NCBI GenBank assembly: GCA_964638175.1
Contig: CAZWZY010000004.1
Coordinates: 12,926 to 76,925 of the forward strand
Reading direction: 5' to 3'
From: an uncultured Thermoplasmatales archaeon
Lineage (GTDB): Archaea; Thermoplasmatota; E2; DHVEG-1
Length of the DNA stretch: 64,000 nt
Below the pieces are notes generated by a model. That model saw only the letters and a program-made list of their open reading frames with translations, did no database searches and was not told where the DNA came from. This document shows, one piece after another, positions 2,325-64,000 of the stretch (within the stretch, counting starts at the first letter, position 1; each line of letters begins with the position of its first letter). Position numbers and translations under genes: made by a program.

Positions 2325-3503
2325 CTATTGTTGGTAGAAGTATAATTTTTTCGAGCTATTATCTAATCGTGTCCCTTCGCCAATTTTATAGATGAAATTT
2401 GATGCTGTTTTTGCTTGAAAAGTAGTTCTGTTTTCTGCTTGTTCCACTGTATTGATTTCATGCAGACAAAAACTAAGCGCTCGAATCTTCCACCGTAGGT
2501 AGTATTGGTCAATCATTGTCGGATCATATTTTTTGACAAACCAATAAAGGAGTTCTACCCAATTGTTAATGTTTATCTGTTGTGATAGTTTGTAAAAAGT
2601 GTTGAAGTCAGTAACATCTCTCATTTTATAATAGATATCATCATGGGGAAGATACATCTTTTTCATCAGTTTAAAGCTTGAAAAACTCCGTTCAATTTCC
2701 TTTTTGATATCCATGTACCCTTCGTCAAAGACAGTATCCATTTCGAAAGGGGAAGCAATGCGCAGTACAGGCTTGATTTTCTTTCGTGCTGGAAGTTGAT
2801 AAAAGTATTGAATCATGCGCACTGCTTCTTCAAAGCACTGCACAAACATTTTTTTCAAATGCGTTAAGGTCTTTTTGTTATGCATTTTTTGTCCAAGATA
2901 GACTTCACCCATCTGATAGCCATAGATGAGTGATTTGATGGTAATAAAGGTATCAATTCCCCACCCGTAGGGAGGATTAATTCCTGTTGAAAATAAGTCC
3001 TTCAGTACTTCTGCTTTTAATGACAATTCGCCACCCAATGGCTGATCGATTTCCCAGGCGTTTGGGAAAAACATGGCAATCAAGGGTTTAGTGACGTGTC
3101 TGGTTATTTGTCCGTCAGTAGGATTTCGCGAAAAGGCGACTTTGACAATGTCTACATCTCGTTCAAGTGGTTCAAATAAAAAGGGGAACCACTTATTGAT
3201 ATTAGGACAAAAAATATCGCCATCCATATAAGCAATTCTCTCAAATCCTTGCTTGAGTGCGGCAAGGCCACCGTTAACCATACCAAGACCTTTCCCCATC
3301 TCGGTGGTATTCACATAGGTGTTTTCATGAATAACCTCGATAGTTTTTGTTTCCTTTGCTTTCAGTCGTTTAAACGTTTCTTCGTTTGACCCATCGGAAA
3401 TGATGATTTTGTCAATCACACCTGATTGCAGCGCTTCTTCTGCAAGAGAGAAGGGGTTGATTCCCTCATTTTTTGAGATGATGAGTAGACAATTCCCTGG
3501 CAT
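2325..3503 (-). CDS. GT-A fold glycosyltransferase (GT2/GT81-like, possibly a glycosyl-phosphoglycerate synthase type)
   Basis: The 392-aa product has an N-terminal nucleotide-sugar binding region (LLIISKNEGIN...IIISDGSNEE) and a DGD (DxD-like) motif at YMDGDIF. No TM segment was seen. Subfamily assignment is uncertain. Confidence 0.55.
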   Translation of the reverse strand: MPGNCLLIISKNEGINPFSLAEEALQSGVIDKIIISDGSNEETFKRLKAKETKTIEVIHENTYVNTTEMGKGLGMVNGGLAALKQGFERIAYMDGDIFCPNINKWFPFLFEPLERDVDIVKVAFSRNPTDGQITRHVTKPLIAMFFPNAWEIDQPLGGELSLKAEVLKDLFSTGINPPYGWGIDTFITIKSLIYGYQMGEVYLGQKMHNKKTLTHLKKMFVQCFEEAVRMIQYFYQLPARKKIKPVLRIASPFEMDTVFDEGYMDIKKEIERSFSSFKLMKKMYLPHDDIYYKMRDVTDFNTFYKLSQQININNWVELLYWFVKKYDPTMIDQYYLRWKIRALSFCLHEINTVEQAENRTTFQAKTASNFIYKIGEGTRLDNSSKKLYFYQQ

Positions 3504-47163: not shown

Positions 47164-48468
47164 ATGGTCATCATGACGGGAGTTATTTTACAAGTTGCCC
47201 TTGATTTACTGAACGCTCATCGTGCGATTGATATTGCACATGATGCAGTAAAAGGAGATCCTGACTGTTGGTTGGAAGTTGGAACGCCTCTCATTAAAAG
47301 CGAAGGTATGAATATCATCCGGACACTGAGAGAACAGTTCCCAGATAAAACGATTGTCGCTGATATGAAAACCATGGATGTGGGTGCGATTGAAACAGAA
47401 ATGGCAGCCAATGCAGGCGCAACAGTGGTTTGTCTACTCGCTGCTGCAGATGATAGTACTATTACGGATGCCGTAAAATCAGCGCGTAAATATGGTGTGA
47501 AAGTGATGCTCGATCTCATCGGAGTAGCTGATGCCGTTTCACGGGCCAAAGAGATAGAGCGTCTTGGTGTCGATTATTTGTGTATTCATGTGGGTATCGA
47601 CCAACAAATGCACGGAAAAACACCCACCACTCTTTTGAAATCAGTGATACAGGCAACCTCGATTCCGGTTGCAGTTGCTGGTGGTCTGAATACAGAGACT
47701 GTTGCAGCGGTCGTCAAGGCAGGTGCACAGATTATCATTGTTGGGGGAGCGATTACCAAAGCACATGATGTCACCAAGGCGACCAAACAGATAAAGCAAG
47801 CCATCGTCAAAAAACAAGCACGGAGTACCACCTTGTTTAAAAAATATGACACGACTGAACTTAAAAAAGCATTCTCGTTAGTATCTACTCCCAACATTTC
47901 TGATGCGATGCATAAGCAGGGTGCAATGGAAGGCATTCGTCCCATTAAACTCGGCTTTCATATGGTTGGCCAGGCCCTCACGGTAAGAACCATGGATGGG
48001 GATTGGGCAAAACCGATTGAAGCCATCGAGCAAGCAAATGGCAAAGTCATTGTTGTCGATGTGCATGGCGGTACAACCGCTATCTGGGGAGAACTTGCTA
48101 CCTGGAGCGCAAAGCAGCGAGGAGTTGCAGGAGTGGTCATTGATGGTGCTGTACGGGATTTAGATGATTTGGTAACGATGGATGTGCCTATTTTCGCTCG
48201 TCACATTAGCGCTCATGCAGGAGAGCCAAAAGGACTGGGGGAAATTGGCGCTGAAATTCGCTGTGGTAATCAACCAGTACGCGCCGATGATTGGATTATT
48301 GGTGATGACTCGGGAGTTGTGGTGGTTCCTCAAGAAATCGCCCAAGAAATTGTCAATCGTGCGCTTGATGTAAAGGAACATGAAAATCGTATTCGCGAGG
48401 AAATTAAAAGCGGAGGCTCACTCGGTTCTGTTCTCGACGTAAAAAAATGGGAGAAGAAGATAGGGTGA
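47164..48468 (+). CDS. Fusion protein: 3-hexulose-6-phosphate synthase-like (OMPDC/KGPDC fold) N-terminal domain plus RraA-like (ribonuclease-regulator / 4-hydroxy-2-oxoglutarate aldolase family) C-terminal domain
   Basis: The N-terminal half (ILQVALDLLNAHRAIDIAHDAV...VADMKTMD...GVDYLCIHVGIDQQ) matches HPS-like orotidine 5'-phosphate decarboxylase-fold enzymes. The C-terminal half (VVDVHGGTTAIWGELATWSAKQRGVAGVVIDGAVRDLDD) matches the RraA/MenG-like fold. The same fusion occurs in Methanosarcinales genomes. Confidence 0.7.
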   Translation: MVIMTGVILQVALDLLNAHRAIDIAHDAVKGDPDCWLEVGTPLIKSEGMNIIRTLREQFPDKTIVADMKTMDVGAIETEMAANAGATVVCLLAAADDSTITDAVKSARKYGVKVMLDLIGVADAVSRAKEIERLGVDYLCIHVGIDQQMHGKTPTTLLKSVIQATSIPVAVAGGLNTETVAAVVKAGAQIIIVGGAITKAHDVTKATKQIKQAIVKKQARSTTLFKKYDTTELKKAFSLVSTPNISDAMHKQGAMEGIRPIKLGFHMVGQALTVRTMDGDWAKPIEAIEQANGKVIVVDVHGGTTAIWGELATWSAKQRGVAGVVIDGAVRDLDDLVTMDVPIFARHISAHAGEPKGLGEIGAEIRCGNQPVRADDWIIGDDSGVVVVPQEIAQEIVNRALDVKEHENRIREEIKSGGSLGSVLDVKKWEKKIG

Positions 48469-49445
48469 AGAAAGTCGTTCATATTACTGATCTTTCTCGG
48501 CTCGATGATGCCTTCGGATTTTTTAATCTCCAGAGTTTTGTGGGAAAAGAGGTGTTGTTCAAATTACACATGGGGGAAATGGGAAACAAATACTATCCAA
48601 AACCTTCTCTCGTGAAGCCAGTTGTTGATCATCTCAAGTCTATGGGTGTGTCTCCTTTTTTCTATGATACAACTGTTGCCTATCCCGCTCTCCGTCATAC
48701 AAAAAGAGGATATGAAAAGGTGGCAAAATTGCACGGGTACACCAAATTAGGGTATAAGGTTGTCATCGATGATGCTGGCGTGGGGGTGACAGTAGAAGGA
48801 CGGACCTATGACGTCGGTACAACATTACATGCCACATCGCATATCGTTGCCTTTTCTCATGTGAAAGGTCATGTGGCGACAGGCATGGGAGGTGCTATTA
48901 AAAATTTTGGTATGGGCGGTGTTACCAAAGAGACAAAAAAAGGTATGCATCATGCAAGCCGTCCACTGCATCAACCAGATGCTTGCACCTTTTGCGGCGT
49001 ATGTGCTGAAGTCTGTCCATTTGATGCCATTACTGTCAATAAAAAGAAGTGGAAACTGAGCAAACGCAAATGTTTTGGCTGTGGCGTTTGTGTCGACAAC
49101 TGTGCACACCAATCACTCGTCAACGAAGAGAAAAATCTGCAGTATCTCTTAGCCTGTGCCGCGAAGGCTTGTGTGCACCAGAAAAACGTACTCTACATTA
49201 ATGATGTCAATCGAATTTCAAAAAGCTGTGACTGTGACCCCATGGCTGGACCTCTCGTCTGTCCTGATGTCGGTTTTCTCGTTGCCGATGATATGGTTGC
49301 TATTGATAAGGCATCCCTTGATCTTATCCATAGTGTAAAGCCCAATGTCTTTGAAAACATCAATAATGTCGATCCTGAAAAACAAATAAAATATGGAGAG
49401 GAGATCGGATTAGGATCTGCCTCTTATACGTTGATTGAGCTGTAG
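48447..49445 (+). CDS. DUF362-domain protein with two 4Fe-4S ferredoxin-type clusters
   Basis: The 332-aa product has CTFCGVCAEVCP and CFGCGVCVDNCA (two CxxCxxCxxxCP boxes) embedded in a DUF362-like scaffold. It overlaps the upstream fusion gene by 22 nt. Confidence 0.6.
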   Translation: MGEEDRVKKVVHITDLSRLDDAFGFFNLQSFVGKEVLFKLHMGEMGNKYYPKPSLVKPVVDHLKSMGVSPFFYDTTVAYPALRHTKRGYEKVAKLHGYTKLGYKVVIDDAGVGVTVEGRTYDVGTTLHATSHIVAFSHVKGHVATGMGGAIKNFGMGGVTKETKKGMHHASRPLHQPDACTFCGVCAEVCPFDAITVNKKKWKLSKRKCFGCGVCVDNCAHQSLVNEEKNLQYLLACAAKACVHQKNVLYINDVNRISKSCDCDPMAGPLVCPDVGFLVADDMVAIDKASLDLIHSVKPNVFENINNVDPEKQIKYGEEIGLGSASYTLIEL

Positions 49446-49449
49446 ACTC

Positions 49450-50061
49450 TTATTTTATGGTCGGTTTGCCAATAGGTAGAACAACTTTTCCATAGGTTTC
49501 ATTGATGACTTCAGCCATTGCTAAATAGATGGCGCTGAGACCACAGATAATTCCCTCGTAACCAGCAATCGTGGTAATGGTTGGATTGTTGGTAAAGTCA
49601 CCTAACGCAAGCAGCCAGAACAAAATTGTCAACGACAGGAAGACAAATTGTAGTGCTTTGTTTTTCTTTAACGTGGAGATAAACATCATAAAGGTGAACA
49701 GTCCCCACATAAACAAATAGGCACCCTTTGCTTGCAATCCTGGCGTAGTTATTCCTGGAATGAGGTTGGGCAATACAACTAAACCAACAAAACTTAGCCA
49801 AAATAACCCATAGGAGCAAAAGGCGGTGACTCCAAAAGTGTTTCCTTTTCGATATTCAAGAATTCCTGCAATGATTTGTGCCAAGCCGCCGTAAAAGATC
49901 CCCATGGCAAGAATCATCGATCCTAGTGCAAAAAACCCAGCGTTATGAATATTCAACAGCACCGTTGTCATACCGAAACCCATAAGACCAAGCGGTGCTG
50001 GATTTGCTAATAGTTCTTTTTCAGCCATAACCTTATCACGAGGGGGCTGAATAAACATCAT
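49450..50061 (-). CDS. GPR1/FUN34/YaaH-family acetate (succinate) channel
   Basis: The 203-aa product has the [18 protein letters not shown] signature (N-P-[AV]-P-[LF]-G-L-x-[GSA]-F) and 6 TM helices. Confidence 0.75.
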
Positions 50062-53019: not shown

Positions 53020-54096
53020 TTATGAACGGAACGGAAAACGTATCGTTCTTGTTTTCTCCCATTTCAACCATGTTGCAGATTTGTTAATCTCAATATCTTC
53101 TGGCGAAGGGGTTATCTCGTGCCAATGATGATAGTTCCACCCCAGATATTCAGACGAGCCGCCGCCGACAGAAAAGATAAAGAGGTTGTTGTTATCAGAT
53201 CCAAAGTTTGTATATTTAAACAGTTTTGTATAGTCATCATAGGTCACATCAATAGGTACCCACCCATAGGAGGGAAGATAAATCTCGGCAATTCTATGAT
53301 AGACCCGATCCACATATGGGGGCTCTGTTTTACAAATGGTCCCTCCTTTATATCTGGCAGGGATGTCAGCAGCACGGCACAGGGCAATGTATGCAGAACA
53401 ATATTCTGAACACGATCCATTGCCTCGTTTGAGTACGGTTGGAGCATCATCCCAAACATCATCTAACACATACTCTAAGTGACTAATGACATAATTGTGT
53501 AGCTTTTTTGCCTGACGTAACAGATTACGTTCTTTTCCAATAACTTCCTGAACAATATTTTGAATATACGGGTCGTTGATTTTATAGAATTCGTCATCAG
53601 CCGTATATTGTTCAATAATTTCTTGAGGTATTTCCCCCCGTACCCTCCAAGGAAGAAGGATATATTGCACGGCATAGAGCGTAGCATTGAGATTCCAAGA
53701 TAATGTTATGGTTTCATTGGGAGCTAATGTGTGATTATAATATGCAGCAACTTGTCCCCACCTGTCTGTTTTGAACCCTTGAGGTGCTGGGGAATAGTCA
53801 ATTTCGCCATGAATCTCTTGATTATACAGGGTCGGTGGTTGAGCAAGATAGGTAGTGACATTTTTGGTGGCTGTTCCGTTATTGGTAATGTGTTCTGTAA
53901 ATTGAATGGTAACTTCTCGAGCATCCCATCGAAAACATAAGGGAATCTTCTCTCTGCTGAAAAGACGATGGCTGTTGCATTGCTCTGTTAGTGACGATTG
54001 AGAAGATACAGAGGGAATCATGCTGACAATAAGTAACAAGATGATTCCAACGACCACTATTTTAGCAATAATTGTCTTTTTTTCCATCTGAATCAC
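53020..54096 (-). CDS. Secreted transglutaminase-like cysteine protease-fold protein
   Basis: The 358-aa product has an N-terminal signal/TM (IVVVGIILLLIVSMIPSVSSQ). A transglutaminase-core motif follows (NGSCSEYCSAYIALCRAADIPARY), with downstream His and Asp residues. Confidence 0.7.
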   Translation of the reverse strand: MIQMEKKTIIAKIVVVGIILLLIVSMIPSVSSQSSLTEQCNSHRLFSREKIPLCFRWDAREVTIQFTEHITNNGTATKNVTTYLAQPPTLYNQEIHGEIDYSPAPQGFKTDRWGQVAAYYNHTLAPNETITLSWNLNATLYAVQYILLPWRVRGEIPQEIIEQYTADDEFYKINDPYIQNIVQEVIGKERNLLRQAKKLHNYVISHLEYVLDDVWDDAPTVLKRGNGSCSEYCSAYIALCRAADIPARYKGGTICKTEPPYVDRVYHRIAEIYLPSYGWVPIDVTYDDYTKLFKYTNFGSDNNNLFIFSVGGGSSEYLGWNYHHWHEITPSPEDIEINKSATWLKWEKTRTIRFPFRS

Positions 54097-54193: not shown

Positions 54194-54586
54194 TTAATCT
54201 TCAATTAGTGATTTTAAGGAGGTGAGGTCTTTTTTAATGGCATCAACTTCTTTTAACTTCTCCTGTTCGAAGCTTTTGATAATCTTGGGGAGTGGTGCTT
54301 TTAGTGAATAGAGGTGAACGGGACGGCCTTTCCCCTTCTTTTTTAAGTCCCGTTTTTCAACCCATCCTTTATCCTGAAGATGTTGCATCGCAATACTTAC
54401 TTCAGGCTGCCGTAAATTGGCACCTCGCTCAATTTCAGCAGAACGACACTCATCAACATGAGAGATATACAGGAGGGTTTTCGCTAAGTTCTTGGGCATT
54501 CCTAAGTCTGTAAACACATGAACGATTCGCTCATCTTGAGATTGTAATTTGTAGGATGCTTTTTTTGTCATATTTTCATCCTTCAA
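54194..54586 (-). CDS. Winged-helix transcription regulator (TrmB/MarR-like)
   Basis: The 130-aa product has an HTH in TLLYISHVDECRSAEIERGANLRQPEVSIAMQHLQDKGWV and a K/G-rich wing. Confidence 0.5.
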   Translation of the reverse strand: MKDENMTKKASYKLQSQDERIVHVFTDLGMPKNLAKTLLYISHVDECRSAEIERGANLRQPEVSIAMQHLQDKGWVEKRDLKKKGKGRPVHLYSLKAPLPKIIKSFEQEKLKEVDAIKKDLTSLKSLIED

Positions 54587-54640: not shown

Positions 54641-55306
54641 TCATCCCAAAAATCCTAATGCTTCTTCTATTCTCCCCATTTCAATACCCGTGGTACGATT
54701 GCCAATAATGGCCCCTTTGGTATTTGCTACGAGCCCACTTCCGATAAGTGGCGCTCCATGATTGACGGTACCAATCATAACATTTACTTGAAATACATCG
54801 CTCAATAGTCTTTTTTCTTCGTCAGTGACCTTGGGATGACACAAACATCCTTTATTGGTGACGACGGCTGCCATGCCAACGGTTTTGAGGGTGCCAATGG
54901 TTCCTTTATAGACAGGCACATCACAAGTCTGTTTGATATCATCGAGTGTTTTTTTGCTCAGATCAGGATGTGCAAGTGCTCCATAGTCATTCATCAACAC
55001 ATCGTTACCAGCAGCATTGTAGATGTCTTCAACCACGCATACCTTTAATCCTTGGTCTTTGATCATCTGTAAACTGTTGTCATCGATAAAATCGGTTACG
55101 ATTGCCCCCCTTGAATTAACACTTAGTAGTGATCCAATAATACTTGCATCTGCAATGCTGAGCTCAACTAGTTCGACACCCAATGCAGCAACAATTTTCT
55201 TCTTAATCTTTTTTAAAAGCTGAGTCCGTACAAACGCAAGGTCGTCATTTGCACGACAAAATACGCCAACATTTGGATTTTCATTGAAATCCAACAGCTC
55301 AAGCAT
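54641..55306 (-). CDS. eif6: Translation initiation factor 6 (aIF6)
   Basis: The 221-aa product begins MLELLDFNENPNVGVFCRANDDLAFV and shows the pentameric repeat structure typical of eIF6. Confidence 0.85.
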   Translation of the reverse strand: MLELLDFNENPNVGVFCRANDDLAFVRTQLLKKIKKKIVAALGVELVELSIADASIIGSLLSVNSRGAIVTDFIDDNSLQMIKDQGLKVCVVEDIYNAAGNDVLMNDYGALAHPDLSKKTLDDIKQTCDVPVYKGTIGTLKTVGMAAVVTNKGCLCHPKVTDEEKRLLSDVFQVNVMIGTVNHGAPLIGSGLVANTKGAIIGNRTTGIEMGRIEEALGFLG

Positions 55307-55309
55307 AGA

Positions 55310-55960
55310 CTAGTCACTTTTCTTTTTGGTGGCTGTTTTCTTTTTCCTACTTGATGTCTTTTTTGTTGTTTTCTTCGCTGGTTTTTTCTTTTTCGTTTTT
55401 GTAGATGTAGTCTTTTTTTCTGGTTTTTTCTTTGCCCCAGTCTTTTTTGTAGGAGGTTTCGGTTGTTTTTCTTCTTTCTCTTTTGTCGGTTTTTCTGCAG
55501 GCTCTTCTTTTTTCTCTTTTGGTGCTTTCTTTTTCTTGATTTTTACGTCACCATCTGCAGTAGGCGCAATTTCGTAGTCTCCGGTACCTGCTTCCTCACC
55601 CGACCCTGCTGGTTCTTCCTCTTCTTCTCTGCGGAGAATGGGTGCTTTCTTCCCCTTTTCTTCCTTCAACAGTTCCCGTCGAGATTTGGTAAATCCCGTT
55701 TCAGGTAGATATGCTTCGACGACACCATCATCGAATTTCACTGCTTTTATCCTTATTTTGCTCGGAATGTGGTATTTTCCTTTTGACCACAATGCGTTAT
55801 TGAGTGAGTCATCAATCCAAATATCCTTTTCTACAACCTTCATGTGTCTTGTTAAGTACTGCTTAACACGTTTCACTGCGGTTGGTGCTGCTGTCGAGGA
55901 TTTCACCCCGATCTTCTTTAACGGAACGATATAAATACGTTCGATTTCTTCTGCCATAGT
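55310..55960 (-). CDS. rpl31e: 50S ribosomal protein L31e with a ~120-aa C-terminal Lys/Pro/Glu/Thr-rich low-complexity tail
   Basis: The L31e core (ERIYIVPLKKIGVKSSTAAPTAVKRVKQYLTRHMKVVEKDIWIDDSLNNALWSKGKYHIPSKIRIKAVKFDDG) is followed by KKKKAPKEKKEEPAEKPTKEKEEKQPKPPTKKTGAKKKPEKKTTSTKTKKKKPAKK.... The ORF track starts at a TTG at 55966. An ATG start (MTMAEE) lies about 6 nt downstream. Confidence 0.8.
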   Translation of the reverse strand, partial: TMAEEIERIYIVPLKKIGVKSSTAAPTAVKRVKQYLTRHMKVVEKDIWIDDSLNNALWSKGKYHIPSKIRIKAVKFDDGVVEAYLPETGFTKSRRELLKEEKGKKAPILRREEEEEPAGSGEEAGTGDYEIAPTADGDVKIKKKKAPKEKKEEPAEKPTKEKEEKQPKPPTKKTGAKKKPEKKTTSTKTKKKKPAKKTTKKTSSRKKKTATKKKSD

Positions 55961-55962
55961 CA

Positions 55963-56121
55963 TCAAGCTTTCTTCAGATTATTTCTTCGCCAGTGGCGGG
56001 TTTTTGGATGACGAGTAAACCGTCTATTGGTTCGAATCATAATCCAGGCGGGAACTCGTCGGTTGCTCTTCGTTGCTTTGTTTAGTCGAATTTTTTTACC
56101 AAGTGATTTATGGGTTGACAT
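55963..56121 (-). CDS. rpl39e: 50S ribosomal protein L39e (not in the ORF track because under 60 aa)
   Basis: Minus-strand translation gives [52 protein letters not shown] (52 aa). This matches the L39e consensus (KKxRLxKAxKQNRxVPxWxxxKTxRxxxxxxxRRHWRR). Its stop overlaps the L31e start region. Coordinates are within a few nt. Confidence 0.8.
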
Positions 56122-56126
56122 AGGAT

Positions 56127-56480
56127 CTACCTTCTTTTTATCGAGATATCTCGTTTTTTTGGCATAATCTTTTTGAGCAGCATCCGTAACTGCTCATCAT
56201 TTATTTTACTTTGCAATTGACCCTGCTGAGCGGCAAGGATGAGTTGATGTTCAATATTTTCCGCGATCTCTGGTCGGGCAACCTTAATGCGCCCTAATCG
56301 TTCCCGTGCATCGTTGGTAAGGATGGCCCGCAAGATTTGTTTTTTTTGTTCTTCAAAGGCCTGTTGTTGTTTTTCCTGTTCTTCGAGCATCGATTCTTGG
56401 AATGCTTGCTGTTGTTGTAGCTCTTGGGCACGTTTTTTCCGTATCTTCTCTAACTCTTTATCCATAACTCTGAGAACCAT
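56127..56480 (-). CDS. PDCD5-like double-stranded DNA-binding protein (archaeal DNA-binding protein family)
   Basis: The 117-aa product is helical and Q/E/K-rich. It has a C-terminal [24 protein letters not shown] segment matching the dsDNA_bind/PDCD5 fold. The position next to S19e is conserved in archaea. Confidence 0.6.
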
Positions 56481-56483
56481 ACA

Positions 56484-56936
56484 TTAATATTTTTTTAATT
56501 CAGGATGATATGATACTACCTCTTTGAGAACTTCATATGAGGCATTATCTAAAAAGGATCGACCTTTTGGAGTAAGTATTCTTCCTCGTCCTTTGACTTT
56601 GGTCACTAAACCTGCTTGTTCTAGTTGTTGGACGGCATGTCGAGTAATGGCACCACTGCCACTCCGTGCTTTATACGGCTTTGACCCGCGGTCACGTTTA
56701 CCACCATATTCTGCACGTAAACGTTCGATACCGATGCCGCTATTCATGTAAATCTTTCGTAGAATGGATGCGCAGCGCGTATGCCACCAGTGTTTATCTT
56801 CTGGTGGTTGCTCCTTTGTCACACCCGTTCTCAAATAACTTGCACCCTCTGGGGAAACAATGGTTTTATCTTGTTGCAGCTTTTTTGCAACGTTGTCGAT
56901 TAATTCTTTTGCGGGAACGTCATAGACTGTTGTCAT
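56484..56936 (-). CDS. rps19e: 30S ribosomal protein S19e
   Basis: The 150-aa product begins MTTVYDVPAKELIDNVAKKLQ and contains WWHTRCASILRKIY and GGKRDRGSKP segments. Confidence 0.85.
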   Translation of the reverse strand: MTTVYDVPAKELIDNVAKKLQQDKTIVSPEGASYLRTGVTKEQPPEDKHWWHTRCASILRKIYMNSGIGIERLRAEYGGKRDRGSKPYKARSGSGAITRHAVQQLEQAGLVTKVKGRGRILTPKGRSFLDNASYEVLKEVVSYHPELKKY

Positions 56937-56990: not shown

Positions 56991-57335
56991 TTATTTAAGC
57001 CTAGCGGAGAGCGTTTCTTTCTGTTTTAGGGGAATACGAGTATATTTTTGGCAGCTGCAACAGTAGATAATCAGCCTCCCTCGATGAATTCGTATACGGG
57101 AGGACGTGTGAGGAAGAAGATAACAATAGCAATGCTTGCAAAATCTTCGTTTGTATTCTGCAGGAATGGGTACAAGATGGCGCATGGAAAGTTTTCGGGC
57201 TAGGGCAACATATCGATTTGCCAATGAGAGATTATGTGCTAGTGCATGATGTTCTGCTAATGAAAAGAGATGTGCAATACGTCTCCGAGCAATGGCCTGT
57301 TGTTGTTTCTTACTTTTTGACGGTTTGTTTCCCAT
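56991..57335 (-). CDS. rnp4: RNase P protein component 4 (Rpp21/Rnp4)
   Basis: The 114-aa product has the basic N-terminal helix IARRRIAHLFSLAE and a zinc ribbon (CKHCYCYL...CCSCQKYT). Confidence 0.75.
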   Translation of the reverse strand: MGNKPSKSKKQQQAIARRRIAHLFSLAEHHALAHNLSLANRYVALARKLSMRHLVPIPAEYKRRFCKHCYCYLLPHTSSRIRIHRGRLIIYCCSCQKYTRIPLKQKETLSARLK

Positions 57336-57424: not shown

Positions 57425-59260
57425 TTAGATAAATACATGTACTGATATCAATCCATTCTCGTAGTATGGCGGCCACAATTCGCCAAATGCCCCACCTTCA
57501 ACAGCCTCAGGCTTGTGATAAATCAACACTTCTCTACTGATCGACTCGATAGTATTTGCATTCTCGCGAGAGGGTCCAAAGGAAGTAATGATCCCCTCGT
57601 CGTTGCTAATGGTAATATTAAGATTATAGACTATAGTTTTTGATACATCAAGGTCAAAAAGAGCGGCTGCGTTTTCCGTATTAATTTTTTGTAAATTTTT
57701 TACTTTATAGTAGTCAAGAATGATGCTCTTGGATGTTTTGTACTTCACTTCAAAGAGATAGCTTTTTTCCGCAAGTTGAGTATAATTAACATAATAATTT
57801 GATCCAACTGATGACATGGTTTCATTGCTAATGTCGGGGAAGATGTCCTTACTTACTGCCACCCATGGTTTCGCATCGTCGTCTGGCAGAGTCAACGTAT
57901 TTGCTTTAACCATATGGATGCTCGTGTCATTTGCTATAGTATTGTTTACTCTAAGCATTACATAGTAGGTACCATTATTTCCATAGTCATAAGTGGGATT
58001 TGCCCCTGTTGCATTCGGTGCTCCGGGAGGATTGGTTGTATCCCAGCTGGTATCCCATTCCCACCACCACTCGAACGTTGCATCATCGGCGTTTAGTACC
58101 GACTCTGATGCATCAAATCGTATCTCAGTCCCTGGACCAAGTCCATCACTGTCAAAAAAGGAAAAGTGAGCGACTGGCGCATGGCCGACCGTTGCAGTTG
58201 TCGTCGCATCTGGAAACATCCAACCTACCAATGAACGATCTCCCCGAGAATCTTCTACCCAGAGTGTTACTTCATACTCTCCTGCTTCGTCATATGTCCA
58301 TGTCGGTGCTACTCCTATATCTTCTTGGAGAGGTTGACCCTCATAAAATCTCCAATCATATTGTACGATAGGATCATGCTCCCAAGGGTCTTCTGTACTG
58401 CCAGATCCATCGAATGTGATGGGTTCGCCAGGTTTTCCGTAGTATGGTCCATCTGCATCAGCTATAGGTGGAAAGAGATTGTGAACCAGGGCATCGTTGT
58501 TACCGACTGTTATAAAATAACAATGATCGGTGTCGATTCCTAAATCATATGTTGGCACTTGTTCATATCTTTGTTCCAGTGAGTTGATCACTATGGTCGT
58601 TGAGGAGAACGACAACGTGTCACCAATATGTAAATCTCCTGCATCAATCCATGACCCCTCAGAATAGACACGATGATTAGGTGTGAGCTTTAGACAATCA
58701 TTGATTACTAGATAATAGTCTCCCATTTCTTCAGCAGCATGGTGATAGATATTTTTTACTTCCCTGTTGGTAATCGTATTTGTTTTTTCATTATATGATT
58801 TTACCATATCGCCGACGACGATATCTTCGATATGTTTGTACGAGCCATCTGCCATCACCACTTGTGTACCAGCAAGAAAACAACTTTCGGCAATGCCTAT
58901 GCGACTATCTTTTACTCGCTCTCGTGAAAGAACGGTGATTTCTCCTTCATCACTGATATTGAATATCCCATATTCCACTGTTGGGTATGTTGCTAGACCA
59001 ACCATACTCACATTTTGTATATCAGTTTCCCATCCTGAAGTATGGCCAACTCCTTGCCCTGGTGAATTAACCAGCAATTCCATGATATCGATACTTTTCG
59101 CTTCCAAGTCAACATTCGGTCGGTCATGGGTGCTATAAATGCTGTTTGCGGCAACAAAGAATACAATAAGTAGAGAAATTGAGATGCCAATGGCTACAAG
59201 AGACTCCAGCACAGGAGATATCCCATCCTGATTCCGACCAAAGATTCTTCTGCTTTTCAT
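57425..59260 (-). CDS. Cell-surface protein: class III (pilin-like) signal/TM, then a Hint (intein-like, BIL-type) autoprocessing domain, two PKD-like domains and a beta-rich C-terminus
   Basis: The N-terminus is MKSRRIFGRNQDGISPVLESLVAIGISISLLIVFF. The Hint domain spans about aa 127-261, from CFLAGTQVVMADGS through the T-x-x-H block (LTPNHRVYS) to ...ALVHN followed by Leu (nt approximately 58478-58882). PKD-like segments follow (PITFDGSGSTED...YEVTLWVEDSRG and EIRFDASESV...YYVMLRVNNT). Sub-coordinates were computed from the ORF-track frame. Confidence 0.7.
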   Translation of the reverse strand: MKSRRIFGRNQDGISPVLESLVAIGISISLLIVFFVAANSIYSTHDRPNVDLEAKSIDIMELLVNSPGQGVGHTSGWETDIQNVSMVGLATYPTVEYGIFNISDEGEITVLSRERVKDSRIGIAESCFLAGTQVVMADGSYKHIEDIVVGDMVKSYNEKTNTITNREVKNIYHHAAEEMGDYYLVINDCLKLTPNHRVYSEGSWIDAGDLHIGDTLSFSSTTIVINSLEQRYEQVPTYDLGIDTDHCYFITVGNNDALVHNLFPPIADADGPYYGKPGEPITFDGSGSTEDPWEHDPIVQYDWRFYEGQPLQEDIGVAPTWTYDEAGEYEVTLWVEDSRGDRSLVGWMFPDATTTATVGHAPVAHFSFFDSDGLGPGTEIRFDASESVLNADDATFEWWWEWDTSWDTTNPPGAPNATGANPTYDYGNNGTYYVMLRVNNTIANDTSIHMVKANTLTLPDDDAKPWVAVSKDIFPDISNETMSSVGSNYYVNYTQLAEKSYLFEVKYKTSKSIILDYYKVKNLQKINTENAAALFDLDVSKTIVYNLNITISNDEGIITSFGPSRENANTIESISREVLIYHKPEAVEGGAFGELWPPYYENGLISVHVFI

Positions 59261-59302: not shown

Positions 59303-59791
59303 TTATTCTGGCTGGCAGATGAGTGAATACGTAACATTTTCAGAGATCGTAGTTTTTCCGTCATCAAAGGTTAATGAGACATCAGCATAGTACACGTGAC
59401 TTTCATTTTCAAGATGAGAATACCAGTAGCTGTTGAGTGTGGCATCCAGGAGGTTTCCATAGGTAAGTTCCAACAACCTAAGCTGATCTCTGGTTTGAGC
59501 AAACGCGTCAAAGATGACATTGATATCTCCCTTGAAGGTTAATACCTCCCCGTTGTTTGAGATGTCGGTGAGGAGGTTGTAATTAAAGGCAGTCCCAAAT
59601 GCTTCTTTCACATAATTGAATTCTGATACTGTTGAGGTTGCTCGTTCGTTTGAAATAGCAACATCGAGATTGATAATATCTACTGCAAGCGATGAAATGA
59701 CAAAGATAGACAATGCAAGTAGTATTCCCATGAGAATGATCATTTGGCTTGCATTTCTCCTTGAATGATGTTTTCTCTTCATACGTAGCAC
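59303..59791 (-). CDS. Small pilin-like (class III signal peptide-like) secreted protein
   Basis: The 162-aa product has a basic N-terminus followed by a hydrophobic helix (MLRMKRKHHSRRNASQMIILMGILLALSIFVISSLAV). The remainder is beta-rich. It overlaps the upstream gene by 13 nt. Confidence 0.45.
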   Translation of the reverse strand: MLRMKRKHHSRRNASQMIILMGILLALSIFVISSLAVDIINLDVAISNERATSTVSEFNYVKEAFGTAFNYNLLTDISNNGEVLTFKGDINVIFDAFAQTRDQLRLLELTYGNLLDATLNSYWYSHLENESHVYYADVSLTFDDGKTTISENVTYSLICQPE

Positions 59792-60321
59792 ATCTCCAAT
59801 CTTACATCATATAGCGAGCCGCTATAATCTTGGAAATTACTTGAGCTTCTCAGATCACTTGCCACAATCGTTGGGAATTTTGTTGCATCTAAAAGATCAG
59901 GGTGAATGGTAACAGTGATATGGGAAACGGTCACAGGCTCTATCAGTTTGACTGGCTCGGTGTCATCAAGCAGTGAATTGCGCCAAAAGATGGTTTTTGT
60001 GCCATTGCTGATATAAATATTATACATTGTGCTTGGCGGAAGCATGTTTTGTAGATTTGATAAAATAAGTGCTTTGTAATTGTCAGTTATCAAATAAAAG
60101 ATAAGTTTACTTTTTGGAAAGCCTTCTGGTAGCACGTCACTTACTTCATCATTATACAAGGTTTGTAGCGCGTCGTCCCCTTTTACTTTTAAGTAATCAG
60201 TATGGGTATTACTGACTGTTGATGTTGGCGAAAGTTGATAGAGAAACACCAGCGCAACGAGTATGGTAATGGCAAAGATTACTGATTCCAACACCATCAT
60301 TTGCGCCTTATCATCCATCAT
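59779..60321 (-). CDS. Small pilin-like (class III signal peptide-like) secreted protein
   Basis: The 180-aa product begins MMDDKAQMMVLESVIFAITILVALVFLY, a K-A|Q prepilin-peptidase-like site with a VLES motif shared with the Hint/PKD protein. Its start lies 3 nt after the stop of the beta-helix gene. Confidence 0.45.
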   Translation of the reverse strand: MMDDKAQMMVLESVIFAITILVALVFLYQLSPTSTVSNTHTDYLKVKGDDALQTLYNDEVSDVLPEGFPKSKLIFYLITDNYKALILSNLQNMLPPSTMYNIYISNGTKTIFWRNSLLDDTEPVKLIEPVTVSHITVTIHPDLLDATKFPTIVASDLRSSSNFQDYSGSLYDVRLEMCYV

Positions 60322-60323
60322 GG

Positions 60324-63300
60324 TTAATCTAGCCCCACTCTAATGCCTTTTCCCCCTCGTTCTACGGTGAGTGCATTTATGATCCAGGTCTTTCCTGGTT
60401 CTCCTTCAAAGGCGATATCCAGGTCCCCTCCATTGTGATGTACGGGGAACCATTTTGTTTCATACTTGCCTTTTTCTGTTTCCGGAAACTGCAGCGTTCC
60501 TCCAGGGTAGGAAATAGTTGTCGCGTTGCAGGTTCCACTGTAATTTCCCCTAGTGATGGTAATGACATAGTCATCAGCAGACAAGTTTATCCTAAACACC
60601 GCACGCTCTATTCCATAGTTACAATCTCGGAGCACTGGCCCTGGCGTGAATGGATTAAAAGTAAGAATATTCTTCGCTTGAATTTTTTCTGTTTCTTCCC
60701 ATCCATACTGTGCCGATTCTGGTGATCCAATAGTAATTGCTGGCGAAATAGCAGGATTTTTTAACACTCGAATCCAATCAACAAGGAGGTGCCCTTCCTC
60801 TGGTGACATGAGACTACAGCCAAGGCCGACTTTCCCCTCCATATACGGCACACCCACAGCATTTTCTATGGGCTCTCCATCATCTCCTGTTTCGTACCAG
60901 TGGGTATCAATGCCGGAAATGTTTCCTATATCTGCAAAATTAGAATGGTGATATAAATATGAACGTATTCGAGCAATATGGTCTTTGTGCGGGTCTCCTG
61001 TATCTGGCTTGTACCAGAACTTTCCTGTATACAGGAATGTTTTCATTCGTAGCCAGTCAGAAATAGCTAGTGTTGTGGTTTCTTTCAAATGATAGATATT
61101 TTCTGTTACGCCGGGAGGAAACGTACCGGGATCATAATAGTAATATTTATACATCGATAGATTGGTATTGGGCGTCTCGTTAAGGGCAAGAATATAGTAC
61201 GATTTAGTTAGACTCAACATGCCACTTTCATAGATTCCAAATCCCATCATGTTTCCCTGCCCTTCATTTACTTTCATCAGTGCTTCAACAGTATATGAAG
61301 ACTCATTTGCTGTTATGGACGGCGGCTGCCCTTCGCTTGGATCGGCAATAGATGGGATAGAAAAATCTTTTGTCATGATAAATTCCTTTGTGGTTAGATT
61401 GAGGCAACCGTCAGTGATATTGTCATTTATATCGCCACTTGTTGGTGACAGATCCCAGTTAGTTGCTATGTTGTATGGAATTGAAGGCCCTGGTGGATTT
61501 TCGAAATCGTCAAAAAACACAGACACCTCATCCATCGTGTGATTGTGGATATCGGTCAATGGTTGATCATAGCCATAGTAGAGATACAGGTGGTGTTCTC
61601 TCTGGCTTTTCAAGTTCATTTTTACCAAAATGATCGATTCACCATACGGGTTCCAATAATCAATATAGTATGGTCGCACGTTATACCGTCCCCCTCCAAG
61701 AGGCCATCGGTCTTTATTTTCGGGAGTAGCACCAGAGATGTTGCGAGGCGTATCCACCTTACCGTCGCTTCCAAGAATATCCTGATCAAATCCTGTATAA
61801 AAGTCATAGGCACCTTCCCATCCTTCGTCATAATCGTCCCAATGGTTTCCTCCTTCCGAACCATTGTCCCATTGATTTGTTCCTTCATCCCATGCTGATC
61901 CATTGCGGAAGATATTGCCATAGATGGTATTAGATCCACAGTTGGAGGTATTGACGTTAATACAATAAACGTTATCAACTATCTCACAGTCAATAACGTC
62001 ATTTTGGTCGGAATCGAGATCAAGAAAAATACCAATATCGTTTTTTGAAATGGTGTTCGATTCAATCGTGTTTGAGTCGGATCGATCACTGATATAAATG
62101 CCCTTATCTCCAGTATCTGTATGCGAATAAATTGAACAATCTTCAATAATGTTGTCGATTGAATCGGTAGTGAGATAGATGCCGGAATCATCATTTTCAT
62201 AAATCTCACAGTTTATTATGCGGTTTTCTACTGATGAATCAATTTTTATGCCGTTGGTGTTTTGGTATATAGTACAATCCTGTATTTCACACCCCTCTGA
62301 TGAATCATAGATGTATATGCCATCCCCACCATTGCCTTCAATAGTACATGTGTGAATCAACTCCTCTTCGTCGGTATCAATATACACACCATGTCTACCA
62401 TTTGATGAAACACGAGAGTTATTAAGACTGATGTAGGGCGGGAAATGTGGAACATGTCCACAGGAAAAGATACGAACGCCATCTCGGGTATTATCATGGA
62501 TATAGCAGTTTTCCTTAACCATGCTGTTTTCTGAAGATTTCATATAAATGCCATCCTCATTATTCTCAACAATACAACCCGTAATTATTGTACTGTCTGC
62601 ATCGTCTAAATAGATGCCTTCATCAGTATTATCGTGAATTACACAGTTGGTTATACGATTAGAGATGCCATCAGTAATGTATACCCCTCTTTGGGCATGG
62701 CCATATATCTCACAATCTATAATCTGAATGTCATGAGCTCCATTGTAAATTTTTACACCATAATCCGTGTTGCCATTGCTGTAAATGGTACAATTTGTGA
62801 TAACGATGTTTTCCGCATTTGATCCACCAATATTAATACAGGGCTGTGGATCATCACTTCGTTCGGTATAGATGGTACAATCCCTGATATTGATGGTGCC
62901 GTCGTTGTATATATAAATCCCGCTTGTTTTGCCATTATAGATGGTTAGCGAACTGATATTTACTTCGCTTCGATCTATGTTGATTAAATGATTGCTTAAT
63001 CCAGTACCGTCTATAATGACACCGTCTCTGCTCTCTCCAAAGATGGTTACACCAGTCTTAGCTATGGTAAACTTTTCATTATATATACCGTTATAAATAT
63101 AGATGGTTCCCCTGTTTGTTACATGATCTAATGCTTCTGTTATAGTCTCAACATGATAATAGTCATACCAATCAGGATCTGGGTTATTGTCATCAACTTG
63201 AATAAACATACGCTGCCACTCTCCTGTAATGCGCTCTCCTGTCTGAAACGGATTAGCTCCATCGCCATCATAGTTTACTGGTTTTCTATCTATCATCATC

Positions 63301-64000
63301 GGGGTAGAGCCTCTCTCTTCAACTAAATATACATCATCGTACCGCACGAAATCAATCCAGACTTGCTCTCGGTAACCATCTGAAAAGTCACCCCACCAGT
63401 TGCCAATGGAATAGGGAGTCCCTCCATCCCACATATATGTTGCCGGATGATGTCCATTATCAAATTGGAAGGTAGACAACAGAGTAATCATATCTGCCCA
63501 TCCTTGGTATGCCCCTGGTTCAGGTTCATTTTTTGAATTAAATTCTATGTTGTTATAGTAGAAGGCATTGAGCTTTGTAGCTGGCCCCCCACTTATATAG
63601 ACGCCGAATCTATTGCCAAAAATGTTACTATGGCCAACGAGGTTCTCAACAACGGGTTTAGGAGTGATTCCTTCAAAGCCAATCATGTCTACGCCGTCGT
63701 CACCATTATCAAAGAAATTACAGTAATTAAACCAGTTGAAGCTTGCTTCTATAGTGATTGTTGCGCCATCCTCGCCGTTAAAGTAGAAATCACAGTTTTG
63801 AAAAGAGTTTGTGTTGGAGCCGTATTCTAGATATGCTCCGTCATTGGTATTGTCATAAAATTGACACCATTTGAATTGATTATTTAATCCTGAGACAAAG
63901 ATACATACGCCCCAATCATTATTGTAGAAATTACAATGGAGAATAGTATTCCAGACGGAACCAACAAATCCGATGCCATCTGCTCCTCTTCCACTAGCCT
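60324..64000 (-). CDS. Large cell-surface protein with parallel beta-helix (PbH1) repeats (N-terminus lies beyond the window end; disaggregatase/NosD-like)
   Basis: The minus-strand frame stays open from 60324 to the window end, giving more than 1,224 codons. PbH1-type repeats recur (NCVIHDNTDEGIYLDDADSTIITGCIVENNEDGIYM..., CTIYQNTNGIKIDSS, CEIYENDDSGIYL, CNFYNNDWGVCIFVS). The C-terminal third has no repeats and contains many N-x-S/T sequons. Confidence 0.7.
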   Translation of the reverse strand, partial: ASGRGADGIGFVGSVWNTILHCNFYNNDWGVCIFVSGLNNQFKWCQFYDNTNDGAYLEYGSNTNSFQNCDFYFNGEDGATITIEASFNWFNYCNFFDNGDDGVDMIGFEGITPKPVVENLVGHSNIFGNRFGVYISGGPATKLNAFYYNNIEFNSKNEPEPGAYQGWADMITLLSTFQFDNGHHPATYMWDGGTPYSIGNWWGDFSDGYREQVWIDFVRYDDVYLVEERGSTPMMIDRKPVNYDGDGANPFQTGERITGEWQRMFIQVDDNNPDPDWYDYYHVETITEALDHVTNRGTIYIYNGIYNEKFTIAKTGVTIFGESRDGVIIDGTGLSNHLINIDRSEVNISSLTIYNGKTSGIYIYNDGTINIRDCTIYTERSDDPQPCINIGGSNAENIVITNCTIYSNGNTDYGVKIYNGAHDIQIIDCEIYGHAQRGVYITDGISNRITNCVIHDNTDEGIYLDDADSTIITGCIVENNEDGIYMKSSENSMVKENCYIHDNTRDGVRIFSCGHVPHFPPYISLNNSRVSSNGRHGVYIDTDEEELIHTCTIEGNGGDGIYIYDSSEGCEIQDCTIYQNTNGIKIDSSVENRIINCEIYENDDSGIYLTTDSIDNIIEDCSIYSHTDTGDKGIYISDRSDSNTIESNTISKNDIGIFLDLDSDQNDVIDCEIVDNVYCINVNTSNCGSNTIYGNIFRNGSAWDEGTNQWDNGSEGGNHWDDYDEGWEGAYDFYTGFDQDILGSDGKVDTPRNISGATPENKDRWPLGGGRYNVRPYYIDYWNPYGESIILVKMNLKSQREHHLYLYYGYDQPLTDIHNHTMDEVSVFFDDFENPPGPSIPYNIATNWDLSPTSGDINDNITDGCLNLTTKEFIMTKDFSIPSIADPSEGQPPSITANESSYTVEALMKVNEGQGNMMGFGIYESGMLSLTKSYYILALNETPNTNLSMYKYYYYDPGTFPPGVTENIYHLKETTTLAISDWLRMKTFLYTGKFWYKPDTGDPHKDHIARIRSYLYHHSNFADIGNISGIDTHWYETGDDGEPIENAVGVPYMEGKVGLGCSLMSPEEGHLLVDWIRVLKNPAISPAITIGSPESAQYGWEETEKIQAKNILTFNPFTPGPVLRDCNYGIERAVFRINLSADDYVITITRGNYSGTCNATTISYPGGTLQFPETEKGKYETKWFPVHHNGGDLDIAFEGEPGKTWIINALTVERGGKGIRVGLD

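Follow-up and report, generated by a model that had tools for sequence, protein, structure and literature searches.

A conserved module and a lysine-rich tail extend ribosomal protein eL31 in an uncultured Thermoplasmatales archaeon and its relatives

Ribosomal protein eL31 (L31e) is among the proteins surrounding the exit channel of the large ribosomal subunit (PMC1934995), and its yeast form, Rpl31, is a contact of the nascent polypeptide-associated complex (NAC) and of the ribosome-associated complex (RAC/Zuo1) near the tunnel exit (PMC3418300). According to a recent review, eL31 is a single-domain protein that lacks both extensions and ribosomal protein partners (PMC9932298), and the archaeal eL31 chains solved so far in PDB are all 82-95 amino acids (aa) long. 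Here we describe an eL31 gene with a different outline, found in a stretch of 64,000 nucleotides (the window) from an uncultured Thermoplasmatales archaeon (assembly GCA_964638175.1, contig CAZWZY010000004.1, positions 12,926 to 76,925). Whereas the canonical archaeal protein ends after 82-95 residues, the eL31 of the window adds 130 residues, which include a conserved module.

The closest functional analogues of this extension are the histone H1-like extensions of insect ribosomal proteins, at the C-terminus of mosquito RpS6 and at the N-termini of RpL23a and RpL22 of flies and mosquitoes, a likeness of analogy and not of homology. Insect L23a is, like eL31, located at the tunnel exit, and a heterologous ribosome can accommodate its extension (PMC548281, PMC1934995, PMC11764897). 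What the insect extensions and the eL31 tail have in common is that they are lineage-restricted, length-variable, K-rich and of low complexity, and that they sit on a conserved core. The insect tails, however, are rich in Ala, Lys and Pro and have sequence similarity to H1, whereas the eL31 tail is K/T/S/P/E-rich and resembles H1 in composition only. The insect cases also differ in the domain of life, in the host protein and partly in the terminus, and are of independent origin; furthermore, the eL31 tail is preceded by a conserved module and none has been reported for the insect tails. The tails of the eukaryotic proteins eL14, eL6 and eL13 are likewise long, basic and partly disordered, and they connect components of the ribosome while lying on the surface of the rRNA (PMC9932298, PMC11764897). 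These tails have been seen in structures and are tied to rRNA expansion segments, while the eL31 extension is known from sequence and belongs to an archaeal host with an otherwise reduced ribosome. Lineage-specific extensions of ribosomal proteins are as such well known, but a conserved eL31 module is undescribed in the literature we searched; our searches for L31e with an extension, with lysine-rich sequence, in Thermoplasmata or with a helix-hairpin-helix (HhH) domain found no prior description.

In the open reading frame (ORF) listing the gene spans 55310..55966 on the minus strand, 218 aa counted from a TTG. The true start is probably not this TTG but the ATG at 55957, because nearly all homologues begin with the same MAEEIERIY. 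This gives a probable coding sequence (CDS) at 55310-55957 on the minus strand, 215 aa starting with MAEE as in the homologues, and all residue numbers below refer to this protein. An alternative ATG at 55963 overlaps the stop of the preceding L39e gene (TGATG). The Pfam family Ribosomal_L31e (PF01198) matches residues 20-74 only, with 40.3 bits against a cutoff of 25 and E=3.7e-10, and the alignments to the 56 eL31 sequences in PDB that match at E<=0.01 are confined to residues 6-87. The core, residues 1-85 (55703..55957, minus strand), was delimited with Pfam, PDB and AlphaFold2 (AF2)/Foldseek, and its conservation, measured here and below as the mean majority-residue frequency of a region, is 0.89. 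The AF2 model, which was run with an alignment, has a predicted local distance difference test (pLDDT) of 80-95 in the core. The top Foldseek matches of the modelled core are all eL31 chains, the archaeal ones with template modelling (TM) scores of 0.81-0.85 by target and a root mean square deviation of about 2 Å. The fold is the same as that of canonical eL31 (PF01198; H. marismortui 1S72 chain X, M. acetivorans 9NRI chain BZ), and so is the slot between L39e and eIF6. By family match, fold and genomic context the protein is a bona fide eL31, and from homology and the literature its position should be in the 50S subunit at the tunnel exit.

Four parts make up the extension of about 130 aa, namely a linker, an acidic spacer, a motif and a disordered tail. 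They were defined with 62 aligned homologues, a second alignment focused on the extension, and statistics for each region. The linker (residues 86-108, ETGFTKSRRELLKEEKGKKAPIL; 55634..55702, minus strand) has a conservation of 0.94, above the 0.89 of the core. It follows the pattern SRRE..L.EE...K.PIL, in which K91, R93, R94, E95, L97, E99, E100, K104, P106, I107 and L108 are invariant in the 62-homologue alignment, and AF2 places a helix at residues 93-103 with moderate confidence (pLDDT ~60-70). Next to it is an E/G-rich acidic spacer (residues 109-123, net charge -5; 55589..55633, minus strand), with a conservation of 0.61, gaps in the alignment and pLDDT below 50, which differs in both sequence and length between homologues. 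The spacer leads into a near-invariant motif, residues 124-144 (DYEIAPTADGDVKIKKKK / GTGDYEIAPTADGDVKIKKKK; 55526..55588, minus strand), with a conservation of 0.88 and the consensus G-x-x-D-Y-E-I-A-P-T-A-D-G-D-V-K-I-K-K-K-K, where G124, Y128, P132, G136, V138, K139 and K142-144 are invariant in the same alignment. The remaining 71 aa, residues 145-215 (55313..55525, minus strand), form the polycationic tail, which ends in KKKSD, with a conservation of 0.50, a net charge of +22 and a composition of 30 K, 12 T, 8 P, 8 E, 5 A and 4 S.

Everything past approximately residue 110 has a pLDDT below 50; in the full-length model the extension is of low confidence except for the short helix, and Foldseek is informative for the core alone. 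No significant match to the extension was found in Pfam (up to E=10) or in a PDB profile search, and a match to GHBP was rejected as spurious. The motif bears a weak and non-significant resemblance to a designed beta-trefoil hairpin (triple match, E=0.04), and it is possibly a beta-hairpin that folds only upon binding. A six-frame search of 500 kb, covering the window and the homologous loci, showed the motif once per locus and exclusively in L31e, with no second copy in other proteins. A K/R-rich segment comparable to the tail is present in no other ORF of the 64-kb window.

The initial annotation of this DNA had described an eL31 with a histone H1-like tail of about 120 residues. That there is a genuine C-terminal extension is borne out by the homologues, the in-frame indels and the selection described below, and the K-rich sequence quoted in the annotation is present exactly. 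The extension is not uniform, though: its first 59 residues (86-144) form a conserved, non-repetitive module, which the annotation had overlooked, and only the last 71 are K-rich. Beyond composition the comparison with H1 did not hold. A search of Pfam up to E=10, with the whole protein and with the extension alone, gave no winged helix or any other H1-type match for the extension, and there is no [ST]PxK motif. The tail is 42% K, and its T+S (23%) exceeds its A (7%). The likeness to H1 is compositional only and the protein does not belong to the linker-histone family.

The protein search returned 831 homologues, and the best 120 of the 831 are 175-231 aa long and have the same layout. [quoted passage not shown] As the loci with the full layout include metagenome-assembled genomes (MAGs) of Thermoprofundales, the organism of the window is placed within or close to this group. 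In 161 distinct motif-bearing sequences tail length ranges over 33-111 aa (median 68) and differs between lineages, a point that the initial annotation had proposed to check. In these sequences K and R make up a median fraction of 0.44 of the tail and hydrophobic residues 2%. The median net charge is +20 (range -26 to +36), with 116 of the 161 tails at +15 or more, and the charge becomes increasingly positive toward the C-terminus. Judged from the homologues, the layout of motif and tail is universal and fixed across the clade.

It had been argued that the tail is no frame artefact since the ORF is continuous up to a stop just before eIF6. The stop is indeed there, a TAG at 55310-55312 followed by a 3-nt spacer and the ATG of eIF6, and the conclusion holds, but the argument does not. 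The region is strongly A/G-rich, with an AT skew of -0.7, and the frame of the gene is not the only open one, the two further sense frames being open as well as those of the antisense strand; on the latter, open stretches of 66-212 aa were seen in 43 of 43 homologous loci. The open frame was consequently dropped as evidence of coding, as both sense and antisense frames are open by composition alone. Three overlapping Phe-rich ORFs on the plus strand (55326-55577, 55463-55708 and 55638-55934) are artefacts, as the initial annotation said; they arise from the composition of a stop-poor, T-rich complement. The frame is settled because the indels are in frame, dN/dS is below 1 and more than 160 homologues have the same layout. 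An independent assembly encodes the identical protein in the same operon. In pairwise codon alignments the differences in CDS length are all multiples of three (-15, -12, -18, -6 and +21 nt), and dN/dS is 0.06-0.16 in the core, 0.009-0.10 in the linker and motif and 0.10-0.39 in the tail. Purifying selection is thus no weaker on the linker and motif than on the core; in the distal tail, selection maintains the composition and the class of length and not the sequence. These comparisons show that the extension is translated, in frame and conserved across more than 160 sequences.

The tail had also been described as built of repeats. Tandem Repeats Finder (TRF) detected only a 15-nt unit repeated 2.9 times, with 65% match and a score of 46, and A-runs are shorter than in shuffled sequences; an origin from tandem or simple-sequence repeats is ruled out by these two results. 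The longest A-run in the tail CDS of the window is 7, as compared to 11.2 expected from synonymous-codon shuffles. Over 43 loci the longest A-run has a median of 7 and never exceeds 9, while the shuffles give a mean of 9.9; P<=0.05 is reached in 23 of these loci. About 70% of the lysine codons of the tail are AAA, interleaved so that the A-runs stay at 9 or less, an arrangement suggestive of selection against slippage or sliding on poly(A) in a translated region.

In another large set of Thermoplasmatota-like sequences, of an abundant lineage, L31e carries a different C-terminal addition, an HhH domain (PF14520), for instance in P0313 and in locus L082, where the gene lies at 2501-3169; further members are found within P0271-P0388. 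The HhH motif is present in 88 of 119 matches, and 69 of the 88 also have a P[IV]L linker. These proteins are orthologous to the eL31 of the window and occupy the same operon slot, as shown by a contig of 672 kb and by 44 blocks from the collection; at L082 the gene order is S19e - dsDNA_bind - L39e - L31e - eIF6 - L18Ae - prefoldin - FtsY. Their linker, LPE..GS[IV]R...EKAAE.P[IV]LK, is followed by an acidic/His-rich spacer and then the HhH, so that both types have a linker, an acidic spacer and a distal module of nucleic-acid-binding type. The distal module is a folded HhH in the one, but the DY..P..DG.VKIKKKK motif with a polylysine-rich disordered tail in the other. When the two linkers were compared with hhalign, 31 columns aligned with E=4e-5 and a probability of 70%, and the distal parts did not align. 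A Thermoplasmatota eL31 linker shared by both, LPE..S.R..EK..P[IV]L, with a helix and P[IV]L straight after the core, is found in the eL31 of the window as well. We also considered that the motif could be a vestige of the N-terminal flank of the HhH (PVTDVKG as compared to PTADGDVKI), which is not supported, as hhalign aligned the linker alone. Literature searches for L31e together with helix-hairpin-helix found no mention of such proteins. Fusions of L31e to FHA, Rho_N, Zn-ribbon and EF-Ts were seen on single contigs (P0122, P0212, P0096 and P0250); these were not used as evidence, since they are singletons at 90% identity and some are probably chimeras of assembly or gene calling.

The variation among homologues can be given a tentative order. 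Cultured relatives have nothing beyond a core of 82-95 aa. L31e consists of the core only (82-87 aa) in Archaeoglobi, Methanoperedens-like archaea, Halobacteria and Methanomassiliicoccales, and the extension is absent from Archaeoglobi, Halobacteria and Methanomassiliicoccales. In a group of Thermoplasmatota MAGs from Guaymas, Pescadero and groundwater (L046-L053) the P[IV]L linker is present, an acidic tail follows and the motif is missing; a mixed tail (charge 0 to +11) together with linker and motif is seen in four loci (L041-L044), and a crown group including the window has strongly basic tails, with one subclade back to mixed or acidic. A crude neighbour-joining ordering of the 85-residue cores, which offers few columns and thus a hypothesis only, suggests a nested acquisition, from the core to linker and acidic tail, then the motif and last the basic tail. 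In the course of this, the charge of the tail appears to have been inverted. Of the 136 representatives of L31e clusters in which the core is complete, 77 have a C-terminal extension of at least 40 aa; this sample is biased in that the query contained the tail. Among the 136, 36 have charged extensions of low hydrophobicity, 9 of them basic, 6 acidic and 21 mixed. Long charged L31e appendages are common in uncultured archaea and absent from solved structures. The view that such a tail is unusual on an archaeal ribosomal protein is accordingly correct when set against the solved chains of 82-95 aa and the review cited above (PMC9932298), but not against metagenomic data, and within the clade the tail is universal.

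What would the extension do? Our preferred explanation, to which we give about an even chance, is that it is a ribosome-anchored RNA-binding arm beside the polypeptide exit tunnel. As eL31 lies on the rim of the exit tunnel, our suggestion is that linker and motif attach to the surface of the large subunit, at rRNA or a neighbouring protein, and that the docked module would hold the polycationic tail as a flexible arm near the exit site. The tail would bind the RNA backbone electrostatically. It would most likely target 23S rRNA in cis, to neutralise charge or for stabilisation, or alternatively another RNA near the exit site, such as the RNA of the signal recognition particle (SRP). Linker and motif are at least as constrained as the core, yet no fold of their own is predicted for them. 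The HhH domain, placed on a homologous linker in an independent Thermoplasmatota lineage, supports contact with nucleic acid as a common theme of these extensions.

Several observations weigh against an RNA-binding arm. Five of the 161 motif-bearing tails have a net charge of zero or less, down to -26, and in L046-L053 the tails are strongly acidic and E-rich, with net charges of -8 to -30 over 40-128 aa; the orthologue in L027 is acidic too, at -14. Acidic tails cannot bind RNA electrostatically, which weakens a model resting on positive charge alone; the role was either indifferent to charge ancestrally or changed when the motif and basic tail were gained. The AF2 model does not pack the motif against the core. 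The homology of the linker to that of the HhH clade is only moderately supported, given the hhalign probability of 70%, and with one K-rich tail in 64 kb there is no genome-wide trend to lean on. Finally, both the place of the extension and its binding to RNA are inferred, no such ribosome being among the solved structures. Binding of nucleic acid, which the initial annotation had put forward, is still the most plausible role for the extension.

It is conceivable, although rather unlikely, that the extension instead recruits factors to the exit site. The motif would then be a short linear motif for NAC, SRP/FtsY, methionine aminopeptidase or the Sec translocon, or the polybasic tail would tether the ribosome to anionic membrane lipids, and such a membrane tether would favour co-translational secretion in sediment archaea that secrete peptidases. 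A motif that is disordered alone and yet near-invariant is what one expects of a binding motif, eL31 is the contact for NAC and RAC around the exit channel in yeast, and Thermoprofundales transcribe extracellular peptidases highly (PMC6461988). Any partner protein would be hypothetical, and the motif is found in no other protein of the 500 kb; the acidic tails and HhH variants on the same linker do not fit membrane tethering, and the operon linkage to prefoldin and FtsY, present in L082, has been lost in the lineage of the window. Recruitment is partly compatible with the RNA-binding arm.

Somewhat more doubtful is the idea of a charge-agnostic disordered bristle, that is, a long hydrophilic chain whose sign of charge drifts between lineages and which would serve in entropic exclusion, solubility, ribosome spacing or in keeping non-specific material away from the exit site. 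This would account for tails that range from -26 to +36 at a constant length class with 2% hydrophobic residues, for the acidic sister clades, for the relaxed dN/dS of the tail, and for the wide occurrence of charged L31e extensions (36 of 136 representatives). It leaves the near-invariant motif and its KKKK unexplained, however, and with 116 of the 161 tails of the clade at +15 or more and a charge that rises C-terminally, the sign has apparently been held in the crown group. The replacement by an HhH domain also points to a specific contact with nucleic acid.

Very improbable is an extraribosomal role as an H1-like chromatin protein, where free eL31 would bind and compact DNA through its tail, a role that has been suggested for the H1-like extensions of RpL22 and RpL23a in flies. 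The lysine-rich composition with P, A and T is in line with this, and HhH domains bind DNA non-specifically, but the protein lacks a linker-histone domain and S/TPxK motifs, its gene is the only orthologue of eL31 and belongs to a tight translation operon, binding to DNA cannot be reconciled with the acidic variants, and a pool of free eL31 is purely hypothetical. An artefact, in which a normal 90-aa L31e was joined to non-coding sequence by a frameshift, by misassembly or because an A-rich spacer was read through, would find some support in A/G-rich DNA that is open in several frames by composition, but is effectively refuted by the identical protein in an independent assembly, the more than 160 homologues from many studies, the in-frame indels, a dN/dS below 1 in every segment, a motif conserved 40-60 residues past the core and a stop right in front of the eIF6 start in loci L001, L027 and L043.

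A wider interpretation, which is speculative and which we think is probably wrong as a whole, is that the Thermoplasmatota eL31 is a modular platform at the exit tunnel, with an ancient, structured linker (a helix and P[IV]L) that carries exchangeable distal modules, and that its polycationic and HhH versions couple the exit face to nucleic acid or membrane. The modules exchanged would be a polyanionic tail, a hairpin motif with a polycationic tail as in the window, and an HhH domain. If the platform exists, it could couple the exit site to SRP RNA, mRNA, nucleoid DNA or anionic lipids, and it would be a lineage-specific prokaryotic counterpart of the networks of ribosomal protein extensions in eukaryotes, with charge inversion.

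The gene is the sole eL31 orthologue of the organism and is located in a tight translation operon with the order Rpr2 - S19e - PDCD5-like dsDNA_bind - L39e - L31e - eIF6, all confirmed with Pfam. The genes preceding it are Rpr2 (56991-57335), S19e (56484-56936), the PDCD5-like dsDNA_bind protein (56127-56480) and L39e (52 aa; 55963..56121, minus strand; PF00832, 68.3 bits), whose stop abuts or overlaps the L31e start, and it is followed by eIF6 (221 aa; 54641..55306, minus strand; PF01912, 221.5 bits). The gene order is conserved in the related loci inspected (L001, L027, L043 and L081), and in the first three of these a stop is also found directly 5' of the eIF6 start. Downstream of eIF6 the window has a MarR/TrmB-like regulator (54194-54586, minus strand) and a transglutaminase-core protein (53020-54096), and the independent contig L081 is arranged alike. 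Locus L082 continues instead with eIF6 - L18Ae - prefoldin - FtsY, a linkage lost in the lineage of the window.

Other genes of the window also deserve mention. At 57425-59260 on the minus strand a protein of 611 aa has a hydrophobic N-terminal segment, a Hint/PT-HINT module (intein-like or pretoxin) at approximately residues 125-261, and then PKD domains; a Hint module in a predicted surface protein is unusual. Within 59303-63686 there is a right-handed beta-helix/NosD-like protein of 1120 aa (60324-63686, minus strand), followed by overlapping ORFs of 180 aa (59779-60321) and 162 aa (59303-59791), both lacking a Pfam match. On the plus strand, 47164-48468 encodes a fusion of 434 aa with an OMPdecase/HUMPS-type domain (residues 9-210) and an RraA-like aldolase domain (242-387). 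It adjoins genes for a DUF362/4Fe-4S protein (48447-49445) and a GPR1/FUN34/YaaH membrane protein (49450-50061, PF01184).

As a practical consequence, which is modest, annotation pipelines and phylogenies of ribosomal proteins should not trim or distrust long L31e genes. The homologues make up a natural series, from no tail through an acidic tail to motif and basic tail, alongside a folded HhH, that can be used to study the origin and role of charged extensions. A group of globally abundant sediment archaea, together with relatives that have acidic or HhH variants, has more than doubled the size of a ribosomal protein supposed to be free of extensions. The added module is at least as conserved as the core itself, which points to a feature of the ribosome at the exit site, structural or functional, that has so far gone undescribed.

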